Assembly (NCBI GenBank): GCA_000432275.1
Contig: HF995314.1
Coordinates: forward strand, 42,313-106,312
DNA: 64,000 bases
Source of the DNA: Proteobacteria bacterium CAG:495
GTDB taxonomy: Bacteria > Pseudomonadota > Alphaproteobacteria > RF32 > CAG-239
Reading direction: 5' to 3'
The translations under genes and the position numbers were made by a program. This document shows positions 11,677-47,463 of the stretch, piece after piece. Every line of letters starts with the position of its first letter. The stretch's first letter is position 1. The notes under the pieces are model-generated. The model was given only the letters and a program-made list of their open reading frames with translations, had not been told where the DNA came from and did no database searches.

Positions 11677-14600
11677 TTACAGGCACTTGATATATTGCCA
11701 ATTGGTCGAGGTTGAGGTTTTGCAAACCAGAGCCGTCGTATTCGGACAAGAGGACGACGAGTAGCTCGGACCGTCACATTTACAATATTTTCCGTAAGTG
11801 ACGTTGGTCTCTTTATCTACGCAGACATCACTTTCATCCAGCCCCAGAATTGATCCGCAGGATGCCGGCGTAAATGTCGGATCGCTTCCGGATACCGGTT
11901 TGGAACGTTCAGAACAGACAATGTTCCCGGAGGCGCCTGCAACCTCAGAAGTATTGATATTTTTGCAGGTTGCGTCGGTTTTGTTATAAGCTGTGGGACA
12001 ACGGCAAACCTTATAACGGGTTTCAGTCGCGCCTCCGGCAAATTCAAAGGTTTTGCCATCGCTGAGTTCATTGGGTTCCGGACAATTTTCGCGGGTATAT
12101 TTCCAGGTACTTTCAATGTCAGCTTTGGGATACAGACAGGCATATTTTGTCGGCTGGTCGCATCCGGGACTGCAAGTGCTGTAGTTTTTGGGATGACCGC
12201 ATTGTCCGACAATAGCCGAAAGACTGGCAATGCTGTATGACGAACAGTCTGCCGGAACACACGGCTCCGGTTCCGGCTCGGGACAAGAGCCTGCAACATA
12301 TTTGGTCGACTTGGAGCCGTCGGCATTAATCGACGTGCAGGAATCCGCACCGGGCTGAATATTGGAGGTACAGGTTACCGTATATGAGCTGCCGCACAGA
12401 CAAGCCTTATAGCGTGTGACAGACTCTCCGTCGACCGTCGTCGTACAGCCGTTGGATAATGTATATTTGGCCGCATTGTTGGCGTCGTCTCCGTCATCGG
12501 TTCCGTCGCATTTGTACTTATAGGCTTCACCGCAACCGCAGCTTTTGTACTTTTGAGTCTGAACCTTCTGATTTCCGACATATTTTATCTCGGTGCAAAC
12601 CTCGCTCTTATCCGTGGGAATAGCTCCGGTTTCGGCACAGGTTTTAGAATACTCGTCTCCGCAGACGCAGGATTTGTAATAAGTTACGGTATCACCATCG
12701 GCATTGGTGGTTTGGCAGGCGTCATCTTCTGACCCCGGAGACTGGCCGTTGCCGTCACAAGTTTCGGAATACTGACTGCCGCATTCGCATTTGGAATAGA
12801 CGGTCTCCCCGCTTTCTCCCGTTGCCAGCAGCGGCGTACAGGGCGTACCCTTGACGTTTTTGGCGGGACATTGCAGATAATTTGCCGGGCATTTGCATTC
12901 CTTGAAAAGTTTGCTGCCGTTTTCGTCAATGCAGAAATCCTCACCCAGAGCGTCGGCCTGATAGCCGGAGCAGACATATTTATAGCCGTTGGCCTTGCAA
13001 TCTTTCGTATCCTGACATTCGGCGTATTTGGTGGTACCGTCCGAACTGGTACAGCTGCGCCCCATGCCCACCTGCTGTTTGGTACAGGTTTTGTAAATGC
13101 TTTCTTCGTCTTCGGTACAGGTATTTTCACCGGTACAGGCACTGTAAACCGTACCTCGTTCATTATCTACGCAGGTAGTGGCATTTTCGGCCGGAGAAGT
13201 TGAACTGCAACTGGTGTAGTTGGCCGGACAACGGCATTTATACATCATCTGATTGTCTTCTCCGAGGCACGGATCATATTTTTCCTGATTAGCGGCGCAA
13301 GCCTTTTGATGCTGATCGCTGCAGGCTGCCGCAGGTTTGGTACAGGACTGATAATAGGACACGCCGTCGACAACACAGGCCGAACCAACGCCGGTTTCAC
13401 CGTCTCCGCAGACTTTGTTATAGCCGGAGGCGCAGGTACAGCTTTCAAAATAAATCTTGTCGTTTTTGGTGCAGGGGTTAACGCCAACCTGCAAGGGATC
13501 GTTACAAGTCAGGTATTCGCCTTTGATGCACTCGCTTTGGGCTTTGCAGCTTTCATAGTAGTTTTCGCCGTTCAGAGAACAGGGCTTGCCCTCGCCAACC
13601 TGATTGGAAGAACATTTGCTCCAGCCGTCAGGACACTTACAGCTTTTATAGGCATAAATTTCACCCTGGTTATCCTGACAGGGGTCTACGCCTATCTGGA
13701 AATCGCCCTTGCATTGCTCGGTGTGCTGCCAGGTACACTGGCTGGCTTCACACTGGTAGTATTTTCCGCCGCAGCCGTTAGGTTTGGTGACGCCGGTCGG
13801 CTTGGCTCCGCCGGGACAGCCGTAATAATTGTCAACCCAGTTTTCCGGCAGTTCGTCTTTTTTGCATTCGCAGGCCTGATATTTGCCGTTGCAGGGTTCG
13901 CCAACGCCGACATACCGTTCTCCGTCGCAAACCTGATTGTAGTCTTCGGAACATTCACAGTAAGCGAAGAACTTCAGGCTGGTGACGCCGGCGGGAATGG
14001 TTCCGTCATTGTTTTCCGACGTAACCTCCTGCTCGCAGCCGCCGCCGTTTAACAGTCCGGCACAATTGTAGCGGTGATATTTATAGGCGGAATGACATTT
14101 GCACTCTTTATAGTAGCGTTTGCCGTTAATAACAATGCTGCCGCCGCCGAGAATGTGTCTGACCGGGCAGTTGTCGTCGGTCCACTTATATTCGCCGGGG
14201 TTAAAGTAGCAGTTAAAGCGGCGGATGTCGGGATCGTTGCGGTCTTCACACAAACGGGCTTCGGCACCGTCGCCGAGCTTCTGGCGGCATTCGCTTTCGC
14301 TCTTGGTTACAATAACCTGATAACCGTTGGTGTTGTCACCATCCTGATAACACTTTTCAAAGCTTCCGACTTTGCACATTCCCGTCTTATATTGCTTATC
14401 CGGGCTGGGATTGCTTGAAGCGTCGTATTTTCCGGCATAGCAGTATTTTTCGCCGCTCGGTTCTACCTGCGGATAGCGGCAAACTTCGCTGTAGACGGAA
14501 GTATCGCAGCTGCATTCATAATACGAAGTCGTTTCGTTGTCCTTGGTACAGGCTATTGCCGTTGCCGCGGTTCCCAACAATGTCTGGCAGGCGCCTTCAG

Positions 14601-16557
14601 AAGTTGCCAGAACGGCGCCCTCATTACATTTGCGCGCTTTACAAGACTGATAGTAGGTTATGCCGTCCACGGAACAAGCCGGGTGTTCGGCATCTACAAC
14701 CGGAGACAGATTATCTTCGCTGTCACAGGTCAGACGGCTGTCATAGGCGGAAGGACAATAACATTTATTGCGAATGACATGGTTGTCGCTGCATTGTTCA
14801 TAAACGGCACCCTGCCCCAGCTCCCACTGGCAGGCGCGATTATCGGAGATATCGTCTTCCATAATCGTGCCGTTGGACGACCCGCTGCTCGGCAACAGGC
14901 TGCACTTGGGATAACAATACTGATACTTGGTTTTGGCATAGGTTTCGCCCTCAAGCTGGCACATAAAACCGGTGCCTTCCTTATTGGCGGCGGCACACTG
15001 GGAATCAGTCAGATAGCTGGCCGGGCAATCGCAATAATAACGAACGTTCTCTTCCAAGGCCTGTCCGTTGGCATAACAGGTTTTGACATTAATTCCCTTA
15101 ACCCCGTCAAACGAGCAGGCATCTTCCGTGTAAAACAACGGGCGGTCCGCAGGACATCCCTCTTCATAGCTTTTAAACTTGGCATCGCCGTCATAAGTAC
15201 AAACTTCTCCGACACCGACTGCGGTATCAGAAGGAACTGCAGTGTAAGTGGAAGGACATCCGCATTCATAACGAACCTGCCCGTTGGTAACGCATACGGT
15301 TGTCGTTGCAGCATCTTCGCCTACTTTCGGACAACCGTCGGCAGTATCTACAACAGGACGGGCTGCCGTGTTAATACGACAATTTTTAGCGCAGGTTTCA
15401 TAATAGGTTTTACCCTGTTCCTGAACCTTACAACTGTCTCCGCCGCCGGCTTCGCCCTCGCCGCAGACTGAAAACGTATTGGGGCATTCGCACATATATT
15501 TGATTGTGGCAGGTTCGTCAGCCATATAGCACTGGGTTGCCGTAGTTGCGGTACCGCCCACCGTCTGACATTCAGCCATACTGTCCACCAATACCATATT
15601 TTCGTCACACTGAATAGCGCTGCGATTCAGCATACAGGCGGCATATTTTTCGCCACCGTCAAAAGTACAGGCCTGACCACCGCCCAAATTTCCGGGACAA
15701 ACGGTATAGTTTTCCGGACAGCTGCAACGATAACGCAGGCTTTGATCCGGCATAACGCACAAGACGGCATTCGGGGTATCAAAACTGTTTACCTTACATT
15801 CATCAATATTGGATTTAACGCTGCCGGCGGCAATATCCTCCTGAGAACAAGGTGCCGCGCAGATGTTTTTAACAATTCCGTCATAGTTGCAGGTGCTGAC
15901 GGCCGTCTGACCCGCGGGGCAGGCTCCTTCGGTATAATCCAAATCGGTAGGACAACTGCAGCTGTAAGAAGCCTTTTCGGCAAATTCTTCGGTAAAGCAC
16001 AAACCAGAATCAACGATGTTGTCTACAATTTTGCTGCAGGCTCCGGCTTCGTTCAACAACACAAAGTCCGAAGAGCATTCGGCATCTTCACTGGAAGTGT
16101 CGTTACCCTTGAAGCTACAGCACTGAGTTGCCGCGGCAGAGCAATCAGAGACTTTTTTCTTATTGTCATCGGCACAATAATCATAGGTATAAGAAAGCGG
16201 CGTTCCCTCGCTGCACAGCCCGGTCGCCTCATCGGTGATGAAAGTTCCCAGTCCCAGACAGCTGCTGTTAATTACAGCTCCCGAACTTTTGAACTGACAG
16301 CACATCTGAGTATCATTGCCGCATTTGTTTTTAAGCATAAAACTGTCGGCACAGTAATACGAAGCGTCTTCCTGACAGGTTCCGTCGGCGTTTACCTTGA
16401 ACGGTTCGTCAATACAGTCATATTTTGAACCATCCTTTTGGCGACAGCACTCTCGCCCGATAACATAACGGTTGTAATCATCACCGCTCTCGTTATCGGC
16501 AGCCAAAGGAGTTGCTTCGACCGCCCACGGAGAAATCGGGGGACTGATGCGCGACAA
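11677..16557 (-). CDS. giant Cys-rich repeat protein, C-terminal 1,626-aa fragment (frame open upstream to 16611; listed start is TTG inside a duplication)
   Basis: About 1 in 10 residues is Cys by eye. About 20 copies of the Y-x2-C-x-C-[PG]-x2-Y-x3-C module. No signal peptide of its own. Confidence 0.7.
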   Translation of the reverse strand: MSRISPPISPWAVEATPLAADNESGDDYNRYVIGRECCRQKDGSKYDCIDEPFKVNADGTCQEDASYYCADSFMLKNKCGNDTQMCCQFKSSGAVINSSCLGLGTFITDEATGLCSEGTPLSYTYDYCADDNKKKVSDCSAAATQCCSFKGNDTSSEDAECSSDFVLLNEAGACSKIVDNIVDSGLCFTEEFAEKASYSCSCPTDLDYTEGACPAGQTAVSTCNYDGIVKNICAAPCSQEDIAAGSVKSNIDECKVNSFDTPNAVLCVMPDQSLRYRCSCPENYTVCPGNLGGGQACTFDGGEKYAACMLNRSAIQCDENMVLVDSMAECQTVGGTATTATQCYMADEPATIKYMCECPNTFSVCGEGEAGGGDSCKVQEQGKTYYETCAKNCRINTAARPVVDTADGCPKVGEDAATTTVCVTNGQVRYECGCPSTYTAVPSDTAVGVGEVCTYDGDAKFKSYEEGCPADRPLFYTEDACSFDGVKGINVKTCYANGQALEENVRYYCDCPASYLTDSQCAAANKEGTGFMCQLEGETYAKTKYQYCYPKCSLLPSSGSSNGTIMEDDISDNRACQWELGQGAVYEQCSDNHVIRNKCYCPSAYDSRLTCDSEDNLSPVVDAEHPACSVDGITYYQSCKARKCNEGAVLATSEGACQTLLGTAATAIACTKDNETTSYYECSCDTSVYSEVCRYPQVEPSGEKYCYAGKYDASSNPSPDKQYKTGMCKVGSFEKCYQDGDNTNGYQVIVTKSESECRQKLGDGAEARLCEDRNDPDIRRFNCYFNPGEYKWTDDNCPVRHILGGGSIVINGKRYYKECKCHSAYKYHRYNCAGLLNGGGCEQEVTSENNDGTIPAGVTSLKFFAYCECSEDYNQVCDGERYVGVGEPCNGKYQACECKKDELPENWVDNYYGCPGGAKPTGVTKPNGCGGKYYQCEASQCTWQHTEQCKGDFQIGVDPCQDNQGEIYAYKSCKCPDGWSKCSSNQVGEGKPCSLNGENYYESCKAQSECIKGEYLTCNDPLQVGVNPCTKNDKIYFESCTCASGYNKVCGDGETGVGSACVVDGVSYYQSCTKPAAACSDQHQKACAANQEKYDPCLGEDNQMMYKCRCPANYTSCSSTSPAENATTCVDNERGTVYSACTGENTCTEDEESIYKTCTKQQVGMGRSCTSSDGTTKYAECQDTKDCKANGYKYVCSGYQADALGEDFCIDENGSKLFKECKCPANYLQCPAKNVKGTPCTPLLATGESGETVYSKCECGSQYSETCDGNGQSPGSEDDACQTTNADGDTVTYYKSCVCGDEYSKTCAETGAIPTDKSEVCTEIKYVGNQKVQTQKYKSCGCGEAYKYKCDGTDDGDDANNAAKYTLSNGCTTTVDGESVTRYKACLCGSSYTVTCTSNIQPGADSCTSINADGSKSTKYVAGSCPEPEPEPCVPADCSSYSIASLSAIVGQCGHPKNYSTCSPGCDQPTKYACLYPKADIESTWKYTRENCPEPNELSDGKTFEFAGGATETRYKVCRCPTAYNKTDATCKNINTSEVAGASGNIVCSERSKPVSGSDPTFTPASCGSILGLDESDVCVDKETNVTYGKYCKCDGPSYSSSSCPNTTALVCKTSTSTNWQYIKCL

Positions 16558-17848
16558 CGCCCATCGGGGTACTGATGCGCGACAACGCCTGGTTCGTTTC
16601 CTCCAACTCGGTCAAACATAAATGATAACTGCCGCGGACCGTCTTATCTCCGGCACATTCAGGCAGGCAAAGCTGATATTTGACATCAAGAGTGCGGGCC
16701 GAATTGCAGGTCCGTCCTCCGGCAACATATCCGACCGGGCAATCGCTCCGGCTTACGTAAGCGTCTTCTCCGTCCGCCGTTTGCGGGCAGCCGCAGTACT
16801 GAACCAACCGGTTATCGGAAATTACGCTTCCCTCAAGGACGCAGGTGTTCAGAACATCTCCGGCCATTTCACAGCTGTCGGTGCCTTCGGTTACCCGCGA
16901 CGGGCATTTGAGCTGGCAATATTCATAACGCCCCTGAGCTTCATCAATCAATGTCGCCTGTCCGTTTCGGTATGCGCCGTTCCAAATGCAGGCGCCGTTG
17001 AGCGCCGCTACGGCATAATCCGTTCCCTTAGCCGTTTTGCAGGAGGCTTCCGTATAGGGATAAACCTCTTCGTCGCATGCATATATCGTGCGCAGCTTAC
17101 GAGTGCCGTTGTTCATATTCTCGTAGCAGGAGCCGGCAACTTTGGTTCCCGCGAGCAATGCGGAAGTAGCCGGCGTGTCGTCGCCGAGGGTTTTGTTCAG
17201 TTGCTCCGAAGTACAGGCCGCATAATCACATTTCCAGAGCAAGGCTCCGTTCAGGGAACAACTCAATGCCGTTTTGCCGTCAGCGCAGGCCGGGCGTGAC
17301 GTTTCAGTATAAGAACTGTCGCACTGAAAATACAAATAGGGCGTATCATTACTGCTGCATCGACCGGCCTCGACACCCAAATTGTTGTCTACGTTGGTAT
17401 ACTTCTGAGCAATTGCCGATATTGAGCGGGAAATGGACACGCTGTCAGAGCCGGACACGGCCTCCCCCGTTCCGATGCCGCCGGTACAGGTTTCAAGATA
17501 GGTACAGGTTCCCTTGCTGCCGTCATCACAAAGCGTGTAGCTGACCTTATCGGTATCGACGCCCAAAGCCGTGGCGCAAAGGTTTTTGGCCGCAGCCTCG
17601 CCTCCTTCGGCAGAGATGGTTACCGGGCCGCAGGCAGGGAGATTGGCCCCTTCGTATGTTGACGTATGAGAAGTGTCTTCGTCGTCGGACGTACCGGCAC
17701 TGCCTGCAGAACCGGAGCTTCCGGCATTTTTGACGCTGAAGTTGCTGTTAAACGGAGTGTCCGCAATCGGCGTTACCGCCGCCAAAGCCAGTTCCGCCGC
17801 AGCAAAAAGTGACACTAAAACGAGGAGAATCTTCTTCATTTTCAACAT
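16493..17848 (-). CDS. giant Cys-rich repeat protein, N-terminal 451-aa fragment with signal peptide
   Basis: N-terminus MLKMKKILLVLVSLFAAAELALA (Sec signal), a GSSGSAGSAG linker, and a Cys-rich body containing YCGCPQT. The C-terminus runs into the 28-bp duplication. Confidence 0.7.
   Translation of the reverse strand: MLKMKKILLVLVSLFAAAELALAAVTPIADTPFNSNFSVKNAGSSGSAGSAGTSDDEDTSHTSTYEGANLPACGPVTISAEGGEAAAKNLCATALGVDTDKVSYTLCDDGSKGTCTYLETCTGGIGTGEAVSGSDSVSISRSISAIAQKYTNVDNNLGVEAGRCSSNDTPYLYFQCDSSYTETSRPACADGKTALSCSLNGALLWKCDYAACTSEQLNKTLGDDTPATSALLAGTKVAGSCYENMNNGTRKLRTIYACDEEVYPYTEASCKTAKGTDYAVAALNGACIWNGAYRNGQATLIDEAQGRYEYCQLKCPSRVTEGTDSCEMAGDVLNTCVLEGSVISDNRLVQYCGCPQTADGEDAYVSRSDCPVGYVAGGRTCNSARTLDVKYQLCLPECAGDKTVRGSYHLCLTELEETNQALSRISTPMGVVAHQSPDFSVGGRSNSFGCR
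16534..16589. repeat. 28-bp tandem direct duplication (2 mismatches) at the junction of the two Cys-rich ORFs
   Basis: Copy at 16534-16561 is aatcgggggactgatgcgcgacaacgcc. Copy at 16562-16589 is catcggggtactgatgcgcgacaacgcc. Period 28 = 3n+1. Confidence 0.85.
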
Positions 17849-18007
17849 TAAGGTACCCGTAGTTTGATATTAAAATGCATTTGGTTTTTATCTTAACATT
17901 TTATGAGGTTATTGCAATTGTAAAATAAGTTTTATGATAATTTTCCACAATTTTGGATAAATGGCTGATAAAGCTTATTTTACAATATAAATAATAATAT
18001 TTCGGAT

Positions 18008-18048: not shown

Positions 18049-21000
18049 TTATTTGCCTTCCGGGTAGTTTCCGTAGGCTTTTTCCCGCCAGGTCTGGAAC
18101 AGGATATAAAGCAGAGGAATCACTATCAGTCCGGCAATGGTACCCAGCATCATTCCGTAGAATACGGGCACGCCGATGGCAATACGGCTGGATGCGCCGG
18201 CACCGGTAGCCACAATCATGGGCAAAACACCCAGGATGAACGTGAATGCAGTCATCAAAACGGCACGAAAACGTTCTTTGGTACCGATTACCGCAGCTTT
18301 AATAATGCTGCTGCCGCGTTCGTGTTCCTCCTTGGAGAACTCAACCACCAAAATAGCGTTCTTGGCAGCCAAGCCAACCAGCAGGATAAGACCCAGCTGA
18401 GCATAAATGCTCAACGGCAGACCGGTTATGAACAAACCGAGCAGTGCACCGAGCATCGCCACGGAAACCGAAGTCAAAACCGGAAGCGGCGTAGACCAGC
18501 TTTCATACTGGGCAACCAGGAACAGATAAGCAAACGTCATTGCCAAGGCAATCAAATAACCGATTTGACCGCCGCTGGATTTTTCCTGATAGCTCATACC
18601 GGACCAATCGTAGCTGAAGCCTTCGGGCAGCTTCTGAGACAACGTCTCCAATGCCCCCATGGCCTGACCGGTACTGGAAGCCGGGTTTTGTACTGCCGTC
18701 ACGGTAGCGCTGGGATACTGGTTGTAGCGGGTAACAACACGCGGAGCCAAAACCTTGCGGAGGCTGACCAGGGCATCAAGCGGCACCATTTCGCCGTTCT
18801 GGTTTTGAACATGGAGCTTTTTGAGACTTTCGATATCCTTACGATATTTCCAGTCAGCCTGAATCATTACCTTGTTAACCTGGGTACCGAAGTTAACGTC
18901 GTTGACATAGCTGGAACCCAGATAATTTTGCAGCACGCTGTAAATACTGCCGATGGAAACTTTCATCGCTTCGGCTTTTTCACGGTCGATGTCGATGTAA
19001 AAGTTCGGCGTTTGTGCCGTATACGTGGTATAGGCATACATAATATTAGGATCCTGATTAATCAGCATCAAAATATTGTTTAAGGCAGCTTCAATTTTTT
19101 GCGGGTTGTCCGTATTCAGAGACTGCAGACGATAATCCATACCGCCGCTCATACCAAGACCCATAATTGCCGGCGGTTCAAACAACTGAATATCGGCTTC
19201 CGGCATACCGATAAGTTTGGCACGAATCCGGTTTAAGATATTGGTTGAATACAGTTCGTCACCGGGACGCTGGTTCCAAGGCTTTAGGGTAATAATACCC
19301 ATTGCAACGTTCTCGCCGCTGCCGCCAATCATACTGTGGCCGATAATTCCCATAACGTTATCAACGCCGGCCTCCTCCTTAAGCAGCGGATAAATCTTGT
19401 CCATAAACTGCTGCGTACGCATACGGCTGGCACCTTCGGGAAGCTGGACGTTCATAAAGATAACGCCCTGATCCTCGGAAGGAATGAATGACGTCTGACT
19501 GATGTGCAGCAAACCGCCCACACCGGCAAACAGCAATACCATTAACAGGAAAATGACACTTACCTTGCGGCCCACAAAACCGACGACGGAAGCATATTTA
19601 TCGCGACTTTTGTTGACAATACGGTTAAACCAGAACAACGGTCCCGACTGGGCCGGTTTCAGCGGACGCAGCAATGTTGCGCACAATGCCGGCGACAACG
19701 TCAACGCGTTCAGGGCGGAAAATGCCACCGACGTAGAAATCGCAATTGCAAACTGCTGATAAATCTTACCGGTAATACCGCCGAGAAAGCCGACCGGCAC
19801 AAAGATGGCCAACAGAACCAACGTGGTTGCGACAATAGCGCTGGAAACCTGTTCCATAGCCTTAATCGTCGCCTCTTTCGGCGAAAGCTTTTCATACTCC
19901 ATCAAATACAAAACGCGTTCGACCACCACAATCGCGTCGTCCACCACCAGACCGATGGCCAACACCAAACCGAACAGCGTCAGCATATTCAGGCTGAAGC
20001 CCAGAGCCAGCATTACGGCAAACGTCGCAAACAACGACACCGGAATGGTCAGGGTCGGAATAAGGGTTGAGCGCCAGTCCTGCAAAAAGACATAACAAAC
20101 CAAAATAACCAAAGCAAACGTCAAAACCAACGTGAAAATAACTTCTTCGATGGAAGCTTTAATATATTCGGTAGAGTCATAGCCGACGGTATAAATCATA
20201 TCTTCGGGGAAGCGCTGAGACAGACGTTCAATCTCGGCTTTAACGCCGTTCATGGCGTCCAGTGCGTTTGCACCGGCCAACTGGTTGATTGCAATCGCAA
20301 CGTTGGGAGCGCCGTTGAATTTGGAAGTCGCATCATAACTTTCTTCACCAATTTCCACCCGGGCGATATCTTTCAGGTAAACAAGACCGCCCTGCTCGGC
20401 AGTGCGAACGATAATATTCTGAAAGTCCTCGACTTCATTAATACGACCCTGCGTCTGCAACGTGTAGACCATTTGCTGGGTTCCGTCGCCGGGCATAGCG
20501 CCGACGCTGCCCAGAGAAGGCTGATAGTTCTGCCCTTCAATGGCGGACTTAATCGTATCGACAGGTATATTCAGAGCGGTAATTTTGTCAGCGTCAAGCC
20601 AAACGCGCATACTTAACCGGGAAGAATAAACGTTGACTTCGCCAACGCCGGCCACACGGCTCAAACTGTCCTTGACGTTGTTTTGAACGTAGTCGGCCAG
20701 CTGTAACTGAGAATATGTGCCTTTGGGCGAAATAATGCTGATAAAGCCCAACATATTTGAAGAACGGCTTTTAACCGTCAATCCCTGGCGGGTAACCTCC
20801 GTCGGAAGTTTGGACTGAGCCTGCTGGATACGGTTTTGAACCTTAACCTGAGCCATATCGCGGTCCACACCGACTTTAAAGGTAACGGTCAGAGAATAAC
20901 TGGAGTTCTCCGAAGAAGAACTCATGTAAAGCATATCTTCAACACCGTTGATTTCCTCTTCCAGAGGGATACCGATTGTCTTTGCCACAACCTCAGCGCT

Positions 21001-21159
21001 GGCGCCGGGATAAGATGCGGAAACCACAACTTCCGGCGGCGTGATTTCGGGATAAAGAGAAATCGGCAGCGAGAAAACAGAGATAATACCGGCCAGCGTC
21101 AACACGATGGAAATAACCATCGCAAAACGCGGGCGCTCAATAAAAATGCGTGAAAACAT
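18049..21159 (-). CDS. RND multidrug efflux permease (AcrB/HAE1 family)
   Basis: 1,036 aa with 12-TM and two large periplasmic loops, typical of AcrB. Conserved N-terminus [24 protein letters not shown]. Confidence 0.92.
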
Positions 21160-22415: not shown

Positions 22416-22868
22416 TTATTTCTTCTCCACTATAATACCATCCATAATCAGATCAAAAGCCTTAAGTACCATGACCGAAAAACATATTGGATACTGCTTT
22501 CCGATGTAAAGACCGAGGGTTCCCCGCCACGCACTTAAAAGGATTGACGCTAATTCATCGACATTAATATTGCTTGTTATTTGCTCACTTTTTTGCAACA
22601 AAGTCAATGTTTCTTTTGTTCTTTGCATAGGAAAATCACGAATCTCGCGAACCTGCTCGCCAATCTTCTGGGCAATGGCTTCAGACCATTCCATCTGATA
22701 AATCAAGAAAAATAAAAACTTGCAAAAATCAGGATCCTGTTCAATCGCCTGAGCGTGCAGCCTTATTTGTTCACGCAGGGCGTCAACCGTTAAAATCGTA
22801 TCCCGGGGCTCATTTTCGCGATGTTTGATGTCTATCCCGGGGCTCAATTTCGCGATGTTTGATGTCAA
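22416..22868 (-). CDS. TetR/AcrR-family regulator, C-terminal ligand-binding fragment
   Basis: Helical AcrR-like C-terminal domain. The N-terminus (MTSNIAKLSPGIDIKHRENEPRD) repeats the sequence at the end of the upstream fragment. Confidence 0.6.
   Translation of the reverse strand: MTSNIAKLSPGIDIKHRENEPRDTILTVDALREQIRLHAQAIEQDPDFCKFLFFLIYQMEWSEAIAQKIGEQVREIRDFPMQRTKETLTLLQKSEQITSNINVDELASILLSAWRGTLGLYIGKQYPICFSVMVLKAFDLIMDGIIVEKK
22800..22867. repeat. 34-bp tandem direct duplication (2 mismatches) inside the tetR/acrR gene
   Basis: Copy at 22800-22833 is atcccggggctcattttcgcgatgtttgatgtct. Copy at 22834-22867 is atcccggggctcaatttcgcgatgtttgatgtca. Period 34 = 3n+1. Confidence 0.85.
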
Positions 22869-23067
22869 ATTTTTGTTTAATCAGCGCCGCCAGCAAATCG
22901 GCCTTGTTGCGAAAATGCCAATAGACGGCTCCTTTAGTGAGGTTGATACGCTTGGCGACTTCGTCAAACGTCGTACGGGAAAAGCCTTTTTCATAAAATA
23001 TATCCAATGCGGATTTCAAAACCGCTTCACGGGTTTGCTCCGCCTCTTCTTTAGTCCTTCTAGCCAT
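22810..23067 (-). CDS. TetR/AcrR-family regulator, N-terminal HTH fragment
   Basis: TetR_N HTH (TREAVLKSALDIFYEKGFSRTTFDEVAKRINLTKGAVYWHFRNKADLL). Ends in ...DIKHREIEPRDRHQTSRK after the duplication. Confidence 0.65.
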   Translation of the reverse strand: MARRTKEEAEQTREAVLKSALDIFYEKGFSRTTFDEVAKRINLTKGAVYWHFRNKADLLAALIKQKFDIKHREIEPRDRHQTSRK

Positions 23068-23289: not shown

Positions 23290-25437
23290 CTATCGTTCCC
23301 TTTTTATTGCGGCAATGTTGCGGACATAGGCTATATCTGTCTCCAATCGCTCCAGCGACACCGGAAGCTTCCGCCGCCAGTTGGGATGTTTGTCACGATC
23401 GGTGCCCGGCAGGTTCTGCATTTTTTCAACATGAAGGATATCTTCCGGCTGAGCCAGGAACACCTGAGAGGCGCAGCGAGACATAAAGCGGTTTACCGCT
23501 TCTTCAATTCCTTCAGGATACCCTTCTCCGTAAATGTAATTGCTTTTACGCTGATTATCCTCCGGCCAAACGCCGTTGCCGTCCAGCGCCGACAAAAGCT
23601 TCCACCGGTCAAGCTCGCGTTTGTGATAAGCATTGCTGCGACCCTGCTCATCAGGAATCAGCCCCAGCAGATAACTGAGTTCAATGTCGTAACCAAACCA
23701 CCACATGCGCAACGGCGCCATATCATGCGTTCCGACAGAAGCAAAGGCAGCTTTAGGATAAGCCGACGGCGGTGCAAAATCGCCCCAGCCGGCGTCATAA
23801 CGCTCAGACCACAAAACGCTCAGCGGATGAATATTGCGCTCGGCCAAAATTTCCAAGAATCCTTCGGGAACGTTTCCGATACTTTCGCCGACAACGGCAC
23901 ACCGGTTAAGATGACTTTCCAGTGCAACCAGATTGAGCATATCTGCAAAATTATAAAAAACATAAGTGCCCTGTTCGCCCTCGTCGGGAATCAGATAAAG
24001 GCGCATCAGGCTCATTACATGGTCGATACGCAGCGCCCCGGCGTTTTTCATATTGGCCCGCAAAATTTTGATAAATGCCTCGTAGCGGTTCTCTTTTAAC
24101 TTAAACGGATTAAACGCTCCGAGACACCATTTTTGCCCCGCAGGAAAAAAGGCATCGGGCGGTGCACCGGCACCGGCATCGGCAAAGAACAATTCGGGCT
24201 GGCTCCACAATTCGGCGCTGTCTTTGCCTACGCCGACCGCAAGGTCCCGATAGAAACCGACGCCCAATCCGAGTTCCTTTACCAACCCCTGCGCTTTGTT
24301 AAACTGACGGTCAGCCTCAAATTGTAAAAATTTGAAAAAATCAACTCTCAGCTTATGCTCTTTCACATAAGCCTTTACCGCGGGAGAGTCCGGATGGCGG
24401 TATTCTTCGGGCCAGGCTCGCCAGCCGCCCCAGGACTGTATGTTCTCATCTTCATACAACGTCTGAAATGCGGCCAATTTTTCAAGATCTTTGCCCTGCT
24501 CTTTGCAAAACTGCTTGTAAGCGGCCAAACGTTCTTTGTTTCCGCCGTTTAAGAAACGGTTATAACAACGCTCAAGCATTTTAATTTTTAAAGGATAGAC
24601 TTCAGAATACTGAATCAGCTCGGAACTGCGCAGCTCTTCCAGCCGTCCTTCGACCTCATATTTGTCTTCCAGCGTAAACTCGGGAACCTCCTCCACATCA
24701 ATATAAATCGGATTGAGGAACAAACGGCTGATAGACGAGTATGGACTGGCATTTTCGGGGAAATTATGCATCAACACATTCAACGGATTGAGACCGATGA
24801 CCTGCGCTCCCGAACGGACACATATCTTAACCAGGCTGCATAAATCAGTAAAATCGCCGACGCCCCAGTTGCGGTCACTTTTAACGGAATAAAGCTGAAT
24901 TGAAAATCCCCAAAGCTTATGCGCCATCGCCGGCGCTTCATAACAGCGTTTGGGCGCCACGGCCAACAGCGTTTTGTAATGTTTGTTCTTTACATTCAGC
25001 CTGACGTCATAATAACCGATGTTCAGGGTTGTTTTAATGTTTATCTGCAAACGTAGCAGCTCTTGCCCGTCGACAAAAGCGGACTGTTCTTCATTTACAA
25101 CCTCATAGGACACGTCGACACGTTCGGCATCGTTTTGGCGAAAGATCTCCAAATCAAAATATTCGCCGGCCCAGGACGCAGGAACAATCACGTCAAAACT
25201 GACGTTTCCGGCTTCTACGACATAGATGTTTTCCAAGGCCTGATGCCAGCGCGCATTTTCCAATCTGTGCAGTGAATTGGCGATAGCTTCGTCGTTTGAG
25301 GCGTCATAGCCGAAACTATTGATGAAGAAACGCAGGGTTTCGTCAGAAACTTCATATTCCCGCCGTATCATTCCGGCATCAACAAACTTGGTTGCTATTC
25401 CCAGCCGTTTGGCAATTCCCTGCAAATCGTGCACCAT
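23290..25437 (-). CDS. malQ: 4-alpha-glucanotransferase (amylomaltase, GH77) MalQ
   Basis: GH77 motifs WGVGDFTDL, LNPL and SPYSSISRLFLNPIYID. 715 aa. Confidence 0.9.
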   Translation of the reverse strand: MVHDLQGIAKRLGIATKFVDAGMIRREYEVSDETLRFFINSFGYDASNDEAIANSLHRLENARWHQALENIYVVEAGNVSFDVIVPASWAGEYFDLEIFRQNDAERVDVSYEVVNEEQSAFVDGQELLRLQINIKTTLNIGYYDVRLNVKNKHYKTLLAVAPKRCYEAPAMAHKLWGFSIQLYSVKSDRNWGVGDFTDLCSLVKICVRSGAQVIGLNPLNVLMHNFPENASPYSSISRLFLNPIYIDVEEVPEFTLEDKYEVEGRLEELRSSELIQYSEVYPLKIKMLERCYNRFLNGGNKERLAAYKQFCKEQGKDLEKLAAFQTLYEDENIQSWGGWRAWPEEYRHPDSPAVKAYVKEHKLRVDFFKFLQFEADRQFNKAQGLVKELGLGVGFYRDLAVGVGKDSAELWSQPELFFADAGAGAPPDAFFPAGQKWCLGAFNPFKLKENRYEAFIKILRANMKNAGALRIDHVMSLMRLYLIPDEGEQGTYVFYNFADMLNLVALESHLNRCAVVGESIGNVPEGFLEILAERNIHPLSVLWSERYDAGWGDFAPPSAYPKAAFASVGTHDMAPLRMWWFGYDIELSYLLGLIPDEQGRSNAYHKRELDRWKLLSALDGNGVWPEDNQRKSNYIYGEGYPEGIEEAVNRFMSRCASQVFLAQPEDILHVEKMQNLPGTDRDKHPNWRRKLPVSLERLETDIAYVRNIAAIKRER

Positions 25438-45908: not shown

Positions 45909-46011
45909 GTCCTTAGGGGTTAAGTTATGATTGACTCGTTTTGGTCGTTTTGATATACTGAAAGAGGAACAGCGGGTTCCGGTTTTCTTTTATTATCTGA
46001 GGACGACGGCC

Positions 46012-47463
46012 ATGAGAAACAGCAAGCTTTTTACTTTTATGCTATGTATAGGCACTATTCATTCCGGAACGGTAAAAGGCTTTGTGCCTCCAGCTTCCAC
46101 CGATGATATAATTACACACACCGACCTTACGCCGGAACCCCTGGCCGCCGTCGACAACGCTTATCGCCTGGCCGCAACCTGGTGGCTTCCCGACTGGCAG
46201 GATTCTCAAAAGTCGCGCGGCAACCAATGTGAGGGCGGCGTATGCGAAGGCGGAGACCTTAAAGGCGACTGCGGTAACTATGGGTTATACCAAACCTGCC
46301 CTTCTCCAAAGCTTTCAACCGGCATTACTCATCCGACGTCAGATTTGACTTGTCAGAAGTCTTGCTACTGTCCGGCCAATTATCAGTACACTTCTTCCAA
46401 CTGTTCGGGCAACCGGGAGCCTTCCGGTGGTTCCTGTGACGGAAAATACAATGCCTGCAGTTGTAAAAAGGAATTTAAATATAACAGTTCAAACTGCAAC
46501 GGCGAAAACGAACTCGGCGGAACCTCTTGTGACGGAAATTACAATTCCTGTACGGTTCGTCCCGAATGTACGGTTTCTTCAAAATCATGCACTTACGGAT
46601 GCAAGACTTACAATTCATGCGACCGATGCACCGAATGCAAAACCAATCCCGACTGCGACGTGTCGTCAAAGTCCTGTACCTACGGCTGCGCTTCATACAA
46701 CAGTTGTTCCAAGTGTACTTCCTGCAAAGAGAATCCCGATTGCAGCGCGACGCCGGTTTCTTGTACTTACGGCTGCGCCTCAACCAACTCCTGCGGCATC
46801 TGTATCTCATGCGCGGGCAATCCGGACTGCAACGTCAGTTCCAAATCCTGCGATTACGGCTGTTCTTCTTACAACTCCTGCGACAAGTGCATTTCCTGTA
46901 AATCCTGTACGCCATACTCAGATGAGACAGGATGTTCTTACGGAAGTTACTCTTGTTCTGACGGATGCGGCGGTACCAGAACCTGTTGTTCGCCGAAACC
47001 GTCTGATCCTTGCGCATCCGTTTCCTGCGGGTCTAACGCATATTGTTCCGGCGGTTCCTGCTATTGTGATTCCGGTTATGAAGGCAATGCTTACAGCGGC
47101 TGCACCAAGACGGATCCCTGTGCCGGCATCAGCTGCCCCTCGAACAAGAGCTGCACTTACGGATGTGCTTCTTACTCCAGTGCTACATCCTGTTGTTCGT
47201 CTGTTTGTACCGCTTGTAAATCGGCACCGCAACCGGAGCCCAGTCCCTCCCCCAGCCCGAGTTCTTCTCCAGAACCGAGTTCATCGCCTGAACCTGTCGA
47301 GCCGTCCAAACCTTCTGAAGCTCAATGCCGAAAAATGTATCCGGACTATAATGAGTGTGTCTGGGGTGGCAGCGGTTGTAAGATATGTGACGACAGGTCT
47401 TTCCGTATGCCGGCTCCCTGTGATGACTATTTTTATCAAGAAGCCCGCTGTGCATCATGGTAA
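46012..47463 (+). CDS. secreted Cys-rich repeat protein (paralogous module to the giant protein) with 4 x 29-aa tandem repeats and a P/S/E-rich linker
   Basis: Start at MRNSKLFTFMLCIGTIHSG (signal-like) after GAGGA. Contains C-x-C-P-x-N-Y modules (SCYCPANYQY, ACSCKKEFKY), four NPDC-x5-SC-[TD]-YGC-x-S-[YT]-NSC-x2-C-x-SC repeats and a PQPEPSPSPSPSSSPEPSSSPEP linker. Confidence 0.7.
   Translation: MRNSKLFTFMLCIGTIHSGTVKGFVPPASTDDIITHTDLTPEPLAAVDNAYRLAATWWLPDWQDSQKSRGNQCEGGVCEGGDLKGDCGNYGLYQTCPSPKLSTGITHPTSDLTCQKSCYCPANYQYTSSNCSGNREPSGGSCDGKYNACSCKKEFKYNSSNCNGENELGGTSCDGNYNSCTVRPECTVSSKSCTYGCKTYNSCDRCTECKTNPDCDVSSKSCTYGCASYNSCSKCTSCKENPDCSATPVSCTYGCASTNSCGICISCAGNPDCNVSSKSCDYGCSSYNSCDKCISCKSCTPYSDETGCSYGSYSCSDGCGGTRTCCSPKPSDPCASVSCGSNAYCSGGSCYCDSGYEGNAYSGCTKTDPCAGISCPSNKSCTYGCASYSSATSCCSSVCTACKSAPQPEPSPSPSPSSSPEPSSSPEPVEPSKPSEAQCRKMYPDYNECVWGGSGCKICDDRSFRMPAPCDDYFYQEARCASW
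46558..46905 (+). repeat. four diverged in-frame tandem repeats of 87 bp (29-aa Cys-rich units)
   Basis: Peptide units RPECTVSSKSCTYGCKTYNSCDRCTECKT, NPDCDVSSKSCTYGCASYNSCSKCTSCKE, NPDCSATPVSCTYGCASTNSCGICISCAG and NPDCNVSSKSCDYGCSSYNSCDKCISCKS. Confidence 0.8.

Follow-up and report, generated by a model that had tools for sequence, protein, structure and literature searches.

A 28-nt tandem duplication that splits a giant Cys-rich protein gene in the CAG:495 record is probably a local misassembly

The window analyzed here, the whole 64,000-nucleotide stretch taken from contig HF995314.1 of the 2013 assembly of Proteobacteria bacterium CAG:495, carries on its minus strand two overlapping ORFs that look like the two parts of one secreted protein, and a short tandem duplication lies where they meet. 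Is the gene broken in the bacterium, or only in the deposited record? The duplication reported by the sequence-only reading of this DNA is present in the deposited record: 28 nt, 2.0 copies, with 2 mismatches, at 16534-16589. On the minus strand, GGCGTTGTCGCGCATCAGTACCCCGATG (16589..16562) is followed immediately by GGCGTTGTCGCGCATCAGTCCCCCGATT (16561..16534). The expectation of finding such a repeat by chance in 64 kb is ~6e-9. The features at this site are the following.

16562..16589, minus strand: 28-nt duplication, copy A; lies upstream with respect to the gene
16534..16561, minus strand: 28-nt duplication, copy B; lies downstream with respect to the gene
16493..17848, minus strand: N-terminal fragment ORF, 451 aa, with a Sec-type signal peptide; identical to CCZ31142.1
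11677..16557, minus strand: body ORF, 1,626 aa, with a nominal TTG start inside copy B; frame open to 16611
11677..17848, minus strand: probable true gene, encoding one secreted Cys-rich protein of 2,047/2,044 aa; intact in all other assemblies

Both ORFs exist as first described, and the body frame is indeed open up to 16611. The extra 28 nt amount to +1 mod 3 and shift the frame, and deletion of either copy fuses the two ORFs, as had been predicted, although the joined protein is not ~2,070 aa long but 2,047 aa, or 2,044 aa if counted from the second Met. The 451-aa ORF had been said to stop 60 nt after the repeat; it actually continues for 22 codons (66 nt) after copy A. Its last 23 residues are non-native, starting from a Met encoded at the end of copy A, and 22 of these 23 are out-of-frame read-through. 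Promoter consensus matches are at background level, and no promoter-like site was found near the junction upstream of the body start on the minus strand, which speaks against a body initiated at its own TTG.

Several base changes cluster at the duplication. The last base of copy A (16562, minus strand) is G in the window, against T in the population allele. In copy B alone, position 16542, the 20th base counted from the junction, carries an A>C change on the minus strand that gives T427P, and another private substitution (16526, TTG>TGG, L432W) lies 8 nt past copy B. Two further private changes, both synonymous (AGT and ACC/CCC), are common to the two copies, which indicates that the copies come from the lineage's own DNA. 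Over 59,795 nt the window has 65 private substitutions, six of whose listed positions fall in 16526-16571. These six represent four distinct changes, since two of them occur in both copies, and the probability of at least four in such an interval is ~2.5e-7; base 16562, which is also copy-specific, falls outside the blastn alignments. The changes specific to the junction are nonsynonymous. Of the other private changes in the gene, 7/8 are synonymous, and the gene thus shows no sign of decay.

Comparison with the same species and with related species showed that the two ORFs are one gene broken by the duplication, as the sequence-only reading had held. One copy of the unit and an intact gene of 2,041-2,047 aa were found in ~50 independent same-species loci, drawn from ENA, Logan, JGI and NCBI and including two contigs of ~1.9 Mb; the two-copy allele was present in none of these other assemblies. 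A scan of metagenome contigs for the unit pattern returned 4 loci, each with one copy. The exact 451-aa product has no record in a 153-billion-gene index, and CCZ31142.1, deposited under the name "Proteobacteria bacterium CAG:495", is found on one contig only. Orthologues from related species (38-57% identity) are single ORFs with the same gene order; the orthologues in our tests measure 2,041-2,526 aa, and representative homologues are single proteins of 2,000-3,000 aa. At the position of the 28-nt site these related-species orthologues have a variable Cys-free linker with no repeat. A naturally split two-gene arrangement was rejected, as the tested relatives (L016, L017 and L024) each have one continuous ORF at the locus.

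The window contains one other lesion of the same kind, 6.3 kb away. When the whole window was searched with TRF, the only other long two-copy repeat was a 34-nt unit in a TetR-family regulator gene.

22799..22866, minus strand: 34-nt unit in two tandem copies, the second such duplication; 1 mismatch, at 22813; shifts the frame of the TetR regulator gene
22416..23066, minus strand: TetR-family gene, 205 aa elsewhere; intact in all other assemblies, split in the window

This duplication also adds +1 mod 3. Its junction lies at 22832/22833, and its mismatch at 22813 is the 20th base from that junction, so that in both duplications the copy-specific mismatch (16542 and 22813) is base 20 of the downstream copy. 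The novel junctions of the window duplications read CCCCGATG|GGCGTTGTC and CCGGGATA|GACATCAAAC; the junction words for the two duplications were CCCCGATGGGCGTTGTC and CCGGGATAGACATCAAAC, and the single-copy words CCCCGATTTCTCCGTTGGCGG and CCGGGATACGATTTTAAC. The start of the unit shares no microhomology with what follows the unit at either the 28-nt or the 34-nt junction. From 1677 to 32457, blastn collinearity with other strains is broken only at the two duplication sites, and outside this interval it breaks only in a length-variable gene at ~46-47 kb.

The same clone has been assembled independently three times (L059, L060 and L061, located via a lineage-specific protein), and each of these assemblies has one copy of the 34-nt unit and an intact TetR gene. 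To one side of the 34-nt site, identity with the window is 100.000% over 6,840 nt for L059 and over 2,739 nt for L061, while L060 has 0 substitutions in 6,787 aligned nt and two 1-nt gaps. On the other side there is 1 mismatch in each, in 4,933 nt (L059), 4,832 nt (L060) and 1,358 nt (L061), and in all three this single mismatch is 22813, within the duplicated 34-nt copy. From these comparisons, the evidence that the 34-nt duplication would be an assembly error is near-direct. A chimera, in which the segment between the duplications came from a different strain than its flanks, was rejected. The same-clone contigs match both sides of the 34-nt site, and the strain split of 96.9% versus 99.3% stems from a divergent block in an RND gene at ~19.5-21 kb and is unrelated to the junctions.

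The 28-nt site is covered by no same-clone contig: L073 ends at window position 12290, and L059 and L060 end at ~17900-18001. Look-ups with a lineage-specific 652-aa protein and with a FlgL-like protein reached only window positions 12290 and 15380, or other strains. An exact look-up of four candidate intact same-clone proteins gave no match, which is uninformative because the samples are of low coverage. The artefact verdict for this site consequently draws on the analogy with the 34-nt twin and on the population data.

On these grounds, the 28-nt duplication is very probably a local misassembly in the CAG:495 contig, either an uncollapsed overlap of contig ends or a gap-filling error, and not a feature of the organism. 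The evidence thus points to the artefact that the sequence-only reading had associated with a single copy and an intact gene. In the mechanism we propose, two sequence pieces of the same clone would have overlapped by ~28 nt, and the overlap would have been left uncollapsed at a contig join or a gap-filling step, and so written twice, because the error-bearing ends of the pieces matched imperfectly. The extra 28 nt would then split the 2,044/2,047-aa gene into two apparent ORFs, and the same event, with a 34-nt overlap, would have occurred 6.3 kb away in the TetR gene. We infer both this common origin and the software step responsible. A fixed k-1 overlap fails to account for the two duplications, as the overlap lengths differ (28 versus 34 nt). 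A pipeline following the CAG method used Velvet scaffolds and SOAPdenovo GapCloser (PMC4563136), and the concept of "negative gaps" arising from overlapping contig ends has been described (PMC4091766); our literature search for documented GapCloser duplication artefacts gave indirect support only. The window resembles known false tandem duplications at contig joins and closed gaps in having two head-to-tail copies of tens of bases in one assembly only, with recurrence in the same contig and base errors beside the junction, and in breaking, within polymorphism-dense sequence, genes that are unbroken in every other assembly. It differs from them in that former gaps have left no runs of N. When 60-nt windows are ranked by strain polymorphism, both duplication sites come within the highest ~4-6%, and it is in such sequence that metagenome assemblers break contigs.

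Could the duplication nevertheless be real? A tandem duplication private to this strain could be so recent that the gene has only now become a pseudogene in the sampled population, with the TetR duplication as a second event. This would fit the public record in which the sequence stands, the two private synonymous changes common to both copies, and the downstream 1,626 codons that are still open, as expected if the event is recent. As in known frameshift pseudogenes created by tandem duplication, a +1 mod 3 insertion has left a signal-peptide fragment and a body. But here constraint is not relaxed, no other sample shows the allele, and the same clone lacks the twin lesion. This explanation would need two independent frameshifting duplications within 6.3 kb, neither with microhomology at its junction and neither present in any other assembly, each accompanied by extra point changes in or beside the new copy, with the 20-nt offset shared by both. 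All this would have happened in a clone with no other substitutions over 11.7 kb against independent assemblies lacking the TetR duplication. We consider it unlikely. Slightly less likely again is the variant in which both duplications are real and mark a template-switch or duplication process specific to this clone. If true, such a process would knock out two genes together, one for the giant Cys-rich secreted protein and one for the TetR repressor that belongs to the neighboring RND pump. This might be reversible, and would then give a common, uncultured alphaproteobacterium of the gut a switch acting on two genes.

Another explanation is phase variation: the locus would be a reversible on/off switch worked by gain and loss of a 28-nt copy, and populations would contain both alleles. 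The giant protein is secreted and probably exposed at the surface, a class whose genes are often phase-variable, and a change of one 28-nt copy shifts the frame by +1. To that extent the locus is like a contingency locus, since gaining or losing a repeat copy would switch the reading frame of a secreted protein. However, contingency loci are built of short units in long, error-free tracts that vary in populations, whereas the window has a 28-nt unit in two imperfect copies, differing at 2/28 bases, in a single assembly. The two-copy state occurs in 0 of the ~50 loci, with the 451-aa product limited to one assembly; orthologues have no repeat in the variable linker; and the same lesion also strikes a cytoplasmic TetR regulator. 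Such a switch, with the two coexisting alleles that the sequence-only reading had proposed to look for, is very improbable, given these ~50 assemblies and the absence of the twin TetR duplication from the same-clone assemblies. Programmed +1 ribosomal frameshifting or translational coupling, by which the full-length protein would be made from the two ORFs, has in its favor that the frames overlap by ~118 nt and that a +1 shift would join them. Nonetheless, it is the least probable of the explanations: direct inspection of the overlap revealed no recognizable slippery or stop-codon context, and in all orthologues the insertion is missing and a single frame encodes the protein, so that there is no conserved frameshift site.

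If the 28-nt duplication is the misassembly that we favor, the split is in all likelihood not real and the bacterium itself carries an unbroken gene. The main value of the case is then one of caution: the public CAG:495 record, including entries such as CCZ31142.1, would contain two or more artificially split genes, each split being due to a tandem duplication of tens of bases with base errors at the junction. Scans of early metagenome-assembled genomes for "split genes", "pseudogenes" or "phase-variable repeats" will catch such artefacts.

The underlying intact gene of ~2,044 aa (9% Cys) is of some interest in its own right. The repaired protein, with 182 Cys (8.9%) and 18 [YF]xxCxC[PG]xx[YFW]xxxC modules, is a full-length member of a family of giant, Cys-rich secreted proteins found in uncultured Alphaproteobacteria of the gut. 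No relatives were detectable outside a small clade of gut Alphaproteobacteria, the family has no sequence matches in Pfam, NCBIfam or PDB, and a word-index search with its conserved core returned fragments only. Our search of the literature on CAG-495/RF32 biology found nothing useful. An AlphaFold model of a 505-aa core (pLDDT 71.6) predicts small all-beta modules with no significant PDB fold match; the best match (E = 2e-3, probability 0.21) is to eukaryotic disulfide-rich bead-like proteins. The relatives, of 2,000-3,000 aa, have invariant Cys columns, and the position of the gene is conserved, always between an RND efflux operon and flagellar genes.

Read along the minus strand, positions 16589..16562 of the window are GGCGTTGTCGCGCATCAGTACCCCGATG, and positions 16561..16534, which come next, are GGCGTTGTCGCGCATCAGTCCCCCGATT. 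Tandem Repeats Finder describes a repeat of period 28 with 2.0 copies and 96% matches, and direct comparison counts 2 mismatches between the copies, confirming the tandem duplication described in the sequence-only reading; ~6e-9 such 28-nt tandem matches with 2 or fewer mismatches are expected by chance per 64 kb. Both open reading frames claimed to meet there are in the ORF list:

16493..17848, minus strand, 451-aa ORF with an ATG start
11677..16557, minus strand, 1,626-aa ORF with a TTG start

The 451-aa ORF carries a Sec-type signal peptide and ends in ...NQALSRISTPM followed by out-of-frame read-through to a stop, which we measured at 66 nt past the upstream copy rather than the 60 nt first given. 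The frame of the 1,626-aa ORF is open to 16611, as claimed, and translates as ...ALSRISPPISPW... Removal of either 28-nt copy yields a single ORF of 6,144 nt and 2,047 aa, compared with the ~2,070 aa proposed for the joined protein. CCZ31142.1 (Proteobacteria bacterium CAG:495, placed in unclassified Pseudomonadota by NCBI) has the same sequence as the 451-aa product, which is known from one contig and has no exact match in a 153-billion-gene index.

The proposal that one gene has been split in two is borne out by this deletion and by the orthologues. The 90%-identity cluster of the 451-aa product has 986 members; 13 of the 15 listed are 2,041-2,047 aa long, the exceptions being the query fragment and a 475-aa form (P0013), and the junction of the members listed reads NQAL[S/P]RISTPISPL[A/T][V/A]EATPL, with the unit present once. 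In three related species (L016, L017, L024) a single ORF encodes the homologue; the lengths are 2,056, 2,526 and 2,456 aa. The orthologues are thus naturally single genes, which excludes a native two-gene arrangement, the case that had been named as counting against a split gene. The 475-aa P0013, which comes from short contigs, owes its truncation to a frameshift in a CAAAAGG run.

We then compared the window with ~50 independent same-species loci, two of them contigs of ~1.9 Mb, drawn from Logan, ENA, JGI and NCBI. In all loci covering the 28-nt site the unit is single-copy and the gene is intact at 2,041-2,047 aa, and a pattern search for the unit returned four metagenome contigs with one match each. 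When these loci were aligned by blastn over 1677-32457, collinearity was broken at 16561/16563 and 22832/22833 only. Outside the two breaks, the only departures from collinearity with other strains are ~1-nt gaps in some alignments and a length-variable gene at ~46-47 kb. This repeat-containing gene (~45931-47463) encodes 502-568 aa between strains, and collinearity is lost at ~46.6-47.2 kb.

The second break coincides with the sole other long two-copy repeat that Tandem Repeats Finder reports in the window:

22799-22866, minus strand, two-copy duplication of period 34, with 1 mismatch at 22813

The 34-nt duplication splits a TetR gene (22416-23066, minus strand), the regulator of the adjacent RND pump, which encodes 205 aa and is intact in every other assembly. 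Like the 28-nt insertion, it is +1 modulo 3. Contigs of the same clone were recognized through the GH77 protein of the window (23290-25437), which is lineage-specific and found on six contigs, three of them from Logan: L059 (ERR4090656), L060 (ERR4090657) and L061 (ERR011169, presumably a MetaHIT-era run). In one flank of the 34-nt site, identity to the window is 100.000% over 6,840 nt in L059 and 2,739 nt in L061, and L060, despite two 1-nt gaps, has no substitutions in 6,787 aligned nt. In the opposite flank each contig has 1 mismatch, in 4,933, 4,832 and 1,358 nt for L059, L060 and L061, respectively. This one difference falls at 22813, the position at which the two 34-nt copies disagree, and in all three contigs the unit is single-copy and the TetR gene intact. 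The window therefore equals the clone sequence plus an extra 34-nt copy with one base error. Were the event natural, the chance that the sole point difference in ~11.7 kb falls inside the copy would be ~0.3%. At the end of a contig that carries errors, such a position is expected. Independent assemblies of the clone lack the 34-nt duplication, which is therefore most probably an assembly artefact.

The two junctions share a signature. In both duplications, base 20 of the downstream copy carries the copy-specific mismatch (16561-19 = 16542; 22832-19 = 22813), and neither junction has microhomology between the unit start and the sequence after it. Scoring 59,795 positions, each covered by at least five other strains, gave 65 substitutions private to the window, six of the listed ones within 16526-16571; at least four distinct private sites within 46 nt have P ~2.5e-7. 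AGC>AGT and ACT>ACC, synonymous and found in both 28-nt copies, are likely to be genuine variants of the clone. The nonsynonymous changes, grouped as copy-specific, are at 16542 (T427P), 16526 (L432W) and 16562 at the end of the upstream copy (I>M). Elsewhere in the gene seven of eight private changes are synonymous, indicating that it is under purifying selection in this lineage and not decaying. A private nonsynonymous change at 17784, signal-peptide codon 22, turns the ELAWA of all other strains into ELALA in the cleavage region. Ranked by between-strain polymorphism among 60-nt windows, both duplication sites fall within the top ~4-6%, and it is in such polymorphism-dense sequence that metagenome graphs branch and contigs stop.

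These observations bear on how the split arose. Programmed frameshifting, which would join the two ORFs during translation, is contradicted by the encoding of the orthologues in a single frame, which excludes a conserved event of this kind. Phase variation of the protein through the repeat is contradicted as well, since a second two-copy allele appears nowhere among the loci covering the site and a cytoplasmic regulator, TetR, is struck by the same lesion. Independent expression of the 1,626-aa body from its TTG finds no support: near the junction there are no minus-strand promoter-like sites, matches being at background level. A real and recent duplication in the clone keeps a small probability at the 28-nt site, which lies beyond the reach of the same-clone contigs, L073 ending at 12290 and L059/L060 at ~17900-18001; looking up the predicted intact same-clone protein by exact sequence gave no hit, a result that carries no information because the samples are low-coverage. 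Such an origin would require two separate events sharing the same unusual traits, of which one is already contradicted, and we regard it as improbable.

The split is, in our judgement, very probably an assembly artefact. In a study applying the CAG method, reads were mapped to CAG contigs, assembled with Velvet, scaffolded, and gap-filled with SOAPdenovo GapCloser (PMC4563136). Two pieces of the same clone may have overlapped by 28 nt at the first site and 34 nt at the second; errors in the last 20-36 bases of the pieces would have blocked merging, and a joining or gap-closing step, as we infer, would have written the overlap twice. Runs of N are absent from the window, consistent with closed gaps. 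The 28-nt repeat is genuine in the sequence record and most probably not a real feature of the organism, which most likely carries an intact 2,044/2,047-aa gene and, again most likely, an intact TetR gene.

The repaired gene (11677-17848) encodes 182 Cys (8.9%) and 18 [YF]xxCxC[PG]xx[YFW]xxxC modules, and the protein has no sequence match in Pfam, NCBIfam or PDB. The gene is flanked by a TetR/membrane-fusion/AcrB-type RND operon on one side and flagellar genes (FlgL-like, FlgK, FlgN, rod-binding, FlgI) on the other. Searched exhaustively with HMMER, 1.84 billion representatives yielded only 43 relatives of a 505-aa conserved core, ~20 of them full-length at 2,000-3,000 aa; when one genome per species was scanned, 15 loci were found, all in MAGs of uncultured gut Alphaproteobacteria. 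The three related-species homologues are among these 15, and all lie between AcrB-type and flagellar genes, with FlgK in all three and FlgI also in L017. An AlphaFold model of the core (21-sequence alignment, mean pLDDT 71.6) predicts small, disulfide-rich all-beta modules arranged in a string, with no significant Foldseek match in the PDB. Family members, including P0002-P0004 and P0021-P0037, are giant secreted proteins of 2,000-3,000 aa with ~9% Cys and ~18 CxC[PG]xx[YFW] modules; the family is limited to uncultured gut Alphaproteobacteria, and its position between RND efflux and flagellar genes holds in the three related species examined. Near the C-terminus (window ~12000; P0009, P0016), PEPEPEPC versus PEPEC is a natural in-frame length polymorphism, giving 2,044 and 2,041 aa, respectively.

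In the neighbouring AcrB-type gene (18049-21159), a block at ~19500-21000 divides the population into two haplogroups, with 26-79 mismatches per 500 nt versus 0-5 per 500 nt between close strains, both in the block and over the remainder of the gene; the block looks like a recombination tract. In L043/L064 (GCA_046970505.1, a 1.85-Mb contig of an otherwise complete-looking genome), gene calling divides the same gene into 689 + 311 aa, probably through an indel error of that assembly.
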